From Pristiophorus japonicus (lineage: Eukaryota), in assembly GCF_044704955.1 (NCBI RefSeq), contig NC_091997.1:10044001-10108000 (forward strand): a stretch of DNA of 64,000 nucleotides, in the 5' to 3' direction. Below are positions 35,514 through 36,260 of this stretch, one piece after another. Numbering within the stretch: the stretch's first letter is position 1; each line of letters begins with the position of its first letter. The notes under the pieces are model-generated. The model was not told the origin of the DNA, did no database searches, and saw nothing but the letters and a program-made list of their open reading frames with translations. The position numbers and the translations under genes were made by a program.

Positions 35514-36260
35514 ATAGAAACATAGAAATATAGAAAATAGGTGCAGGAGTAGGCCATTCGGCCCTTCGATCCTGCACTGCCATTCAACAAGATCATGGCT
35601 GATCCCCCACCCCAGCACCTCCCCCCCATGCCCCCACCACACCCCCCCCCCACGCCCCCTTCACACCCCCCGACCCCCCCAGCCGCAAGGACCACATCCA
35701 ACTCCCTCCCGAACACATCCAATGAACTGGCATCAACAACTCTCCGTAGCAGGGAACCCCACAGGCCAACAACTCCCCGAGTGAAGAAGTCTCTTCCCAA
35801 TCCCAGCCCCAAACAGCCCACCCCCCATCCCAAGAGCGTGCCCCCCACCGCCCCCCCCCCCCGGCTCCGGACGCACCCAACACCGGGAACACTCCCCCCG
35901 CACCCAACCCGCGCCGTCCCGTCAGAATCCTTCCCAAATGCCGAACACCCCCGGATGTCGAGCCCCCAGCCCCGGCCACCCCGGAGCCACGCCCCCGCGA
36001 CGTCAACCACACCACATCCACCAACCGCCATCTGCGCAGTCAACCCGTCCACCCCACTCTGAACACTCCCCGCACCGAGGCACAGAGCCACCAGGCCCGC
36101 CCCTCCAACACACTTCGCCCCCCCAGACCTCCGCTGCAATGTGGCCCCTCCCGTCACCCGTCCTGGGTTTCTCCACCACCCCACCTCCACCACTCTCCCC
36201 TCCATCCCCCGCCCCCGTCTCCCCTCATCTTCCCTCTGCCTCCCCGCACAGGCTCCCATC
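35514..36260 (-). mobile_element. Internally deleted CR1 copy with strand-specific A>G (plus-strand T>C) hypermutation
   Basis: 35514-35930 aligns to the CR1 3' end (cf. 48440-48810) and 35931-36260 to the ORF2 5' region (cf. 51161-51490); differences are overwhelmingly T>C. Confidence 0.88.

Follow-up and report, generated by a model that had tools for sequence, protein, structure and literature searches.

The window analysed here, a stretch of 64,000 nucleotides from Pristiophorus japonicus, contains a composite retroposon copy that has an older repeat as its host and an 8-bp duplication on either side. The duplicated 8-mer, GAGTCATA, lies at 35509–35516, where its last four bases overlap the tail repeat of the element, and recurs in identical form at 37103–37110. 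Copies of the host repeat near 54660–54740 and 62930–63010 are empty sites, in which the target site is present once. The element itself reads on the minus strand. Its unedited CR1 3' tail (35513–35587), made up of a predicted stem-loop and (TTTCTATG)n repeats, may serve as the recognition signal for the CR1 reverse transcriptase. Next to it lies hyper-edited piece A (35588–35929), which corresponds to the end of ORF2 and the 3' UTR, and then hyper-edited piece B (35927–36260), which runs from just past the ORF1 stop to the N-terminus of the endonuclease. The segment 35513–35929 aligns with the CR1 3' end (48430–48808 and 12991–13368), and 35927–36260 aligns with 51157–51491, about 2.35 kb further 5' in the intact CR1. 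The sequence-only reading of this DNA had missed the joining of the two CR1 pieces, as well as the continuation of the element beyond them and its boundaries at the target-site duplications.

The junction of the ~2.35-kb internal deletion (35927–35929) shows ATC microhomology, and most of ORF2, including the reverse transcriptase domain, is gone. The size of the deletion is taken from matching arms in a homologous element, L164 2350–2722 and 5068–6405, where RVT_1 (L164 3181–3990) lies inside the deleted part; ORF1 of this element, a GDSL esterase, occupies L164 5415–6305 and the endonuclease L164 4855–5436. Splicing was rejected as the cause of the deletion, since the sense sequence has no GT after the breakpoint and an unedited DNA copy has the same junction.

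On the 5' side of the element, a 158-bp non-CR1 head (36261–36418) has 68–79% identity to 44876–44946 and 62059–62171. It is presumably flanking DNA picked up at the insertion site of the founder, a fragment of an older repeat. Neither a tRNA (ARAGORN, 0) nor an Rfam match was found over 35400–37300, the true 5' end was not recovered, and the head does not appear to be that of a SINE derived from a Pol III RNA (tRNA or 5S). The element ends 5' in a 37-bp VNTR (36419–37104; TRF, 18.3 units) and is truncated within this array. Two further minisatellites in the window, at 38721–40007 and 55080–55500 (a ~34-bp unit and a G-rich unit), do not resemble edited CR1 on reading.

The sequence-only reading had taken the C-rich stretch to be a CR1 with systematic plus-strand T>C, which is A>G on the sense strand. 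Its hand alignment of 35931–36010 to 51161–51240 is exact: it is ungapped, with 18 T>C, one T>A and one C>T, and 18 of the 24 reference Ts are converted. The change at the protein level was also reproduced, with RDFFTRGVVGLWGSL...VFGRELD in the window copy and RNFFTQRVVNLWNSL...IFKKELD in the reference. The reference used in that reading, an unedited minus-strand CR1 at 48430–52270, belongs to a sister subfamily and is 93% alike to the inverted partner on C18 described below. As a parent it was rejected, because at diagnostic sites other than T>C it departs from the edited family, whereas the parent subfamily agrees with it there.

We therefore refer to this closer parent subfamily, which has 34,973 motif matches in the genome. 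Its column majority was built from 22 copies for piece A (8 of 30 loci were dropped as near-identical duplicates) and from 58 copies for piece B. The latter leaves out a motif set of 2,432 matches dominated by an unrelated unedited CR1 deletion family; this separate deletion-derivative family is represented by L097–L126. Another shared internal deletion (window-equivalent 49399–50129) is present in four near-identical copies of the parent subfamily (L062, L064, L070 and L077).

Against this majority, 140 of 227 Ts in the window copy have become C (sense A>G), with 32 other substitutions over 698 aligned bases, confirming the reading of the stretch as an A>G-converted CR1. The edits span 35588–36253. 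Piece A has 57 T>C among 98 Ts over 35522–35928, and piece B has 83 among 129. In an alignment at the level of the subfamily, which the sequence-only reading had proposed together with a tabulation of neighbours, the family majority differs from the parent majority by 142 T>C and by 19 substitutions of other kinds. Plus-strand C>T (sense G>A) accounts for 3 of these 161 substitutions. APOBEC-type editing was rejected, as the clusters of sense G>A that would be its mark are absent.

Among 188 editable body sites with T in both the parent majority and an unedited copy on C18, 130 (69%) are edited. By the sense 5' neighbour, the edited fractions are 26/26 for U, 50/63 for A, 28/41 for C and 26/58 for G (Fisher p = 2.8e-6), so that the avoidance of a 5' G noted by eye in the sequence-only reading stands. 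The order U>A>C>G of 5' neighbours is the one tabulated by Eggington et al. for hADAR1 and hADAR2 (PMC3113232), and 5'-G avoidance is likewise described in PMC8586724. The 3' neighbour has no significant effect (46/62 edited with a 3' G and 84/126 without; p = 0.32).

The tail is spared: of 17 A sites in its first 83 columns, 1 is edited. The comparison holds for sites without a 5' G, at 1/12 in the tail versus 104/130 in the body (p = 1e-6), and the last edit falls at the 5' edge of the predicted tail stem-loop. Stringent LINEs require their own 3' end for retroposition (PMC3747384), and the sparing therefore probably reflects either selection that kept the tail intact or some protection of it.

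The sense A>G direction suggests that the edit was made on RNA, since an A deaminated in the cDNA would turn up as sense T>C. Judged from the spectrum and context of the substitutions, the edits very probably stem from ADAR acting on the founder RNA, and the earlier proposal of a hyper-edited RNA reverse-transcribed into the germline is supported by the spectrum and the 5'-neighbour order. Conversely, the substitutions could have arisen without ADAR, through a single error-prone reverse transcription with a skewed dNTP pool or through some other adenine deaminase that attacked the second strand of the DNA. The conversion of 69% is very high, and the insignificant 3' neighbour also speaks for such an origin. 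However, the strict 5' order matches ADAR, the spared tail is the first part to be copied, and APOBEC-type DNA editing yields G>A (PMC4866542). We consider an origin without ADAR very unlikely.

The large family to which the window copy belongs had likewise escaped the sequence-only reading. In the 5.92-Gb genome, 39 other near-full-length matches at 88–92% were found among the 40 candidates that were scored out of 4,630. An exact 25-mer over the edited junction has 784 genome matches on many contigs (394 forward and 390 reverse; 0 for the reversed-pattern control), and an exact 33-mer of the head has 480. Thirty loci were fetched, and 28 copies were aligned after L029 and L030, near-duplicates of L028, were dropped. 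The junction word is kept in 17 of the 28 sampled copies and the head word in 18, from which we estimate ~1,300 copies covering the junction and ~750 reaching the head; both are lower bounds, because the sample is made of best matches. All fetched loci have different flanks but a common (CATAGAAA)n end, junction, 158-bp head and 37-bp VNTR. Dispersed, with a shared tail, variable 5' truncation, no coding capacity and the reverse transcriptase deleted, the copies form a non-autonomous, LINE-tailed family. The window copy is a 5'-truncated member of it, flanked by target-site duplications and composed of VNTR, head, edited CR1 and intact tail.

The edits are common to 28 of 28 aligned copies, and a single founder follows from this. 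The sequence-only reading had seen in the window copy a lone fossil of transposon restriction. These shared edits and the 784 junction matches do not support that view: the edited RNA spread and was not silenced. Divergence from the family majority is 1.6–4.2% in 26 of the 28 copies, the other two being 5'-truncated, misaligned copies at 7.1 and 9.3%. The new CpGs had been described as undecayed, from which a recent or artefactual event was concluded. This is partly right for the CpGs, although CpG transitions make up 163 of 744 differences between the 28 copies and the majority; the conclusion itself does not agree with the shared edits, the distinct flanks, the divergence of the copies and the presence of the edited form in contigs of other studies.

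The same observations bear on the idea that the stretch is a base-calling or assembly artefact, or C-rich low-complexity DNA resembling CR1 by chance. It is indeed C-rich, and its C-runs differ in length among copies; piece A of the window copy has C-run (sense G-run) expansions of its own near 35621–35645 and 35841–35862. Nevertheless, the junction matches lie on both strands of many contigs with distinct flanks, and the edited form occurs in contigs of the likely source sample and in short-read contigs of other samples and studies, for example a 268-base contig over the junction with four differences; a second study and a second organism label are among them. We regard an artefact as excluded by these data for all practical purposes. 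The sense G-runs of the edited body lengthen and shorten from copy to copy; over window positions 35600–36262 they number 48, compared with 23 in the unedited C18 copy, and G-quadruplex-like motifs number 6 compared with 0.

The VNTR ranges from 1 to 122 units across copies and is followed each time by unrelated flank. Such a range would result if truncation at the 5' side fell within a long array, or if the array expanded later. Neither the master locus nor the true 5' end was found among these copies, three long ones ending within the VNTR at 72, 122 and 58 units. A search for an edited copy running on into CR1 without the head gave 0 exact matches, and all 7 one-mismatch matches have the head. 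A crude common-substring search found no consistent target-site duplications in the other 29 loci. Ongoing re-editing within the family was considered and rejected as weak: rare T>C stand at 22/112 and rare A>G at 22/163 across the copies (L024 and L026 left out). On C4 (G000:C4:132272583–132579238), six head-motif matches lie ~60 kb apart, a spacing that suggests family copies within a tandem segmental array.

A candidate for the source of the founder was found on C18. A search for the unedited junction gave 7 matches at no more than 2 mismatches, one of which is an unedited locus (C18:40.838 Mb); the other six have edited letters. A second full-length match to this copy was not found among the best 40 scored in a DNA search, and none of the 32 matches listed (with 14,560 more) was a short-read contig spanning the unedited C18 junction. 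The deleted, unedited copy (L164 393–2096) stands tail-to-tail, ~250 bp apart, with an inverted CR1, and the whole locus including this partner covers C18:40.837–40.843 Mb. The partner is a near-full-length CR1 (L164 2349 to ~6695) with esterase, endonuclease and reverse transcriptase domains (Lipase_GDSL_2, E = 4e-10; Exo_endo_phos, E = 8e-5, below the Pfam cut-off; RVT_1, E = 7e-28). With its ORF1 esterase, APE endonuclease, reverse transcriptase and short 3' (TTTCTATG)n tail, the parent appears by its sequence features to be a CR1-clade LINE, and it is by domain layout and tail that we take the clade name to apply.

The two arms at C18 are 85–86% alike over 1,320 and 370 bp. For the two edited pieces, the duplex model gives pairing of 336 of 385 and 309 of 333 bases with the inverted partner. 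The C18 copy and the family have two changes in common, one T>C and, next to the junction, an A>C, each present in 0 of 22 parent copies. The C18 copy has ~15 private changes per piece (~4.5%), which fits the sum of master-lineage changes and copy divergence (~2.4% + ~2.6%, ~5%). Editing is not predicted by the density of mismatches in the present-day duplex, since the edited fractions by local mismatch-density bin are 21/26, 38/50, 30/36 and 15/18. The tail could also pair within the C18 hairpin, yet it is unedited.

It is possible, but improbable, that ADAR edited the founder on a duplex that arose elsewhere, through antisense CR1 RNA in trans or at a lost or unsampled sibling with the deletion, and that the C18 copy is a mere unedited sibling. 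In non-T>C distance to the family, the C18 copy is no closer than other parent copies (22, compared with 15–29, for piece A; 15, compared with 9–21, for piece B). Four of the nine sites common to it and the family are widespread subfamily variants, and it is without a one-base insertion variant present in the family. It is also without the 5'-most ~290 bp, a CpG-rich 5' end that its inverted partner has. Moreover, 5 of the 22 parent copies have an inverted CR1 piece of 200 bp or more no further than 1.3 kb from their 3' end (with >80% identity, 3 of the 22 do); a hairpin is thus not rare, and the link to C18 as the source rests mainly on the junction. Set against an origin elsewhere are the finding of just one unedited junction copy, the span of the C18 partner over both edited pieces and the fit of the branch lengths. 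We therefore regard the deleted C18 copy as a good candidate, and the likely one, for the exact source of the edited founder.

An edited family copy lies 7.6 kb from this candidate source (G000:C18:40846205–40847135; L164 9706 to L165 634), where ~0.004 would be expected by chance within 10 kb on either side. This copy was rejected as the master, since it has derived family states and an unrelated flank.

Editing is not limited to this one family. A search pattern based on the sister subfamily, with three UA edits forced, yielded 37 matches, with 0 for the reversed control, and 25 of these were fetched (L183–L207; examples are G000:C1:9770713, C1:146779934, C1:529465616 and C4:92271436). These copies represent a second composite element, in which a ~338-bp 3' CR1 piece is appended to a CR1 of another type. 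The appended piece carries four different A>G patterns of 23–39 edits each, with pairwise overlaps of 15–20; one pattern is common to 22 copies, and L185, L187 and L190 are each distinct. Different patterns on one structure are as predicted by repeated RNA editing and retrotransposition.

The pooled 5' neighbours in this element are U 39/60, A 54/98, C 14/76 and G 13/91, with 0/42 in the tail; the U class is inflated by the three forced UA sites per copy and stands at 27/48 without them. One copy, L198 (G000:C8:231565217), has the shared pattern and a further 54 T>C among 98 in its 5' CR1 part, where nine sister copies have 0–2. The copy appears to have gone through editing twice, and a second piece heavily changed atop an inherited pattern also counts against an origin without ADAR. 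From these sequence patterns, editing followed by retrotransposition appears to have recurred in this genome. The antisense-editing mirror control gave 0 matches but is no evidence, being poorly matched, with a 5' G, which is disfavoured, at two of its three forced sites. In the aligned CR1, ~250 kb in all, from the loci fetched before the search for the second element, all 24 alignments with an excess of at least 18 are copies of the first family.

We propose that the element in the window belongs to a non-autonomous, CR1-tailed family whose founder was edited by ADAR on double-stranded CR1 RNA and then fixed in germline DNA, and we consider this account as a whole quite probable. A read-through transcript of the deleted C18 copy would fold back on its inverted neighbour, and ADAR would deaminate ~69% of the duplex As and leave the tail alone. 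The CR1 ORF2 protein, acting in trans, would prime at the tail and copy inosine as G. The resulting 5'-truncated insert would land beside an older repeat and a minisatellite. The founder locus would then be transcribed and become the master of roughly 1,300 copies.

With some reserve, we are also inclined to a broader view, in which ADAR hyper-editing of CR1 hairpin RNA would be a recurring germline mutator. The CR1 reverse transcriptase would write edited RNAs back into DNA, and the edits would create new non-autonomous families, at least two of them here. Editing may even favour spread, by destroying the pairing of the founder with antisense CR1 copies, of which there are many, and sparing the tail needed to mobilise it.

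The edited CR1 is likely, then, to be a real product of ADAR that was amplified into a family and not silenced. RNA editing has likely entered heritable DNA here and been amplified there; for Alu subfamilies, a review of 2016 had called this not determined (PMC4982230). The specificity of germline ADAR in this lineage is also recorded, with a date, in the DNA of the edited family. Since one genome contains an edited family, a candidate for its source hairpin and sister copies that were edited independently, the path is directly testable. Edited copies resemble C-rich low-complexity DNA, and standard repeat annotation can miss them.

In comparing this system with others, we presume the names CR1, HER1 and SVA to be apt. 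Among the papers listed by full-text searches of a library that includes few subscription journals, none was found to describe a transposon family whose founder was an RNA edited by ADAR. By description, not by sequence, the family resembles the SVA composite retroposons (PMC3287187) and the LINE-tailed SINEs HE1/HER1 of sharks and rays (PMC3747384), in being non-autonomous, composite, VNTR-containing or LINE-tailed and, presumably, mobilised in trans. As far as these elements are described there, the present family differs in that no tRNA-derived head was found, the VNTR is at the 5' end and the body consists of a CR1 that is hyper-edited and has lost an internal segment.

As a putative substrate of ADAR, the inverted repeats recall the inverted Alu pairs, whose A-to-I editing is described at the RNA level in the 2016 review (PMC4982230). 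In another report, the restriction of L1 by ADAR1 appeared to be independent of editing (PMC5224506). Unlike these Alu and L1 cases, as presented in those sources, the edits here are inherited and the edited RNA spread.

The closest precedents are the APOBEC G>A in vertebrate LTR elements and the A>G hypermutation of avian retroviruses. APOBEC-edited LTR retrotransposons, with G>A made on the cDNA, have become fixed in the genomes of vertebrates (Knisbacher and Levanon, PMC4866542), and like them the present copies keep strand-biased deaminase clusters in germline retroelements. In contrast to what is described for those elements, the change here is A>G with the neighbour order of ADAR, was likely made on RNA and founded a family. 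ADAR-type A-to-G hypermutation is described in Rous-associated virus as well as in avian leukosis virus, with nearly 50% of As changed in an LTR and an inverted-repeat region (PMC12925331). There, as here, hyper-editing of RNA would have been recorded in DNA through reverse transcription; unlike the avian retroviruses of that account, the element here is a non-LTR one that was fixed in a vertebrate genome and then amplified as a family.
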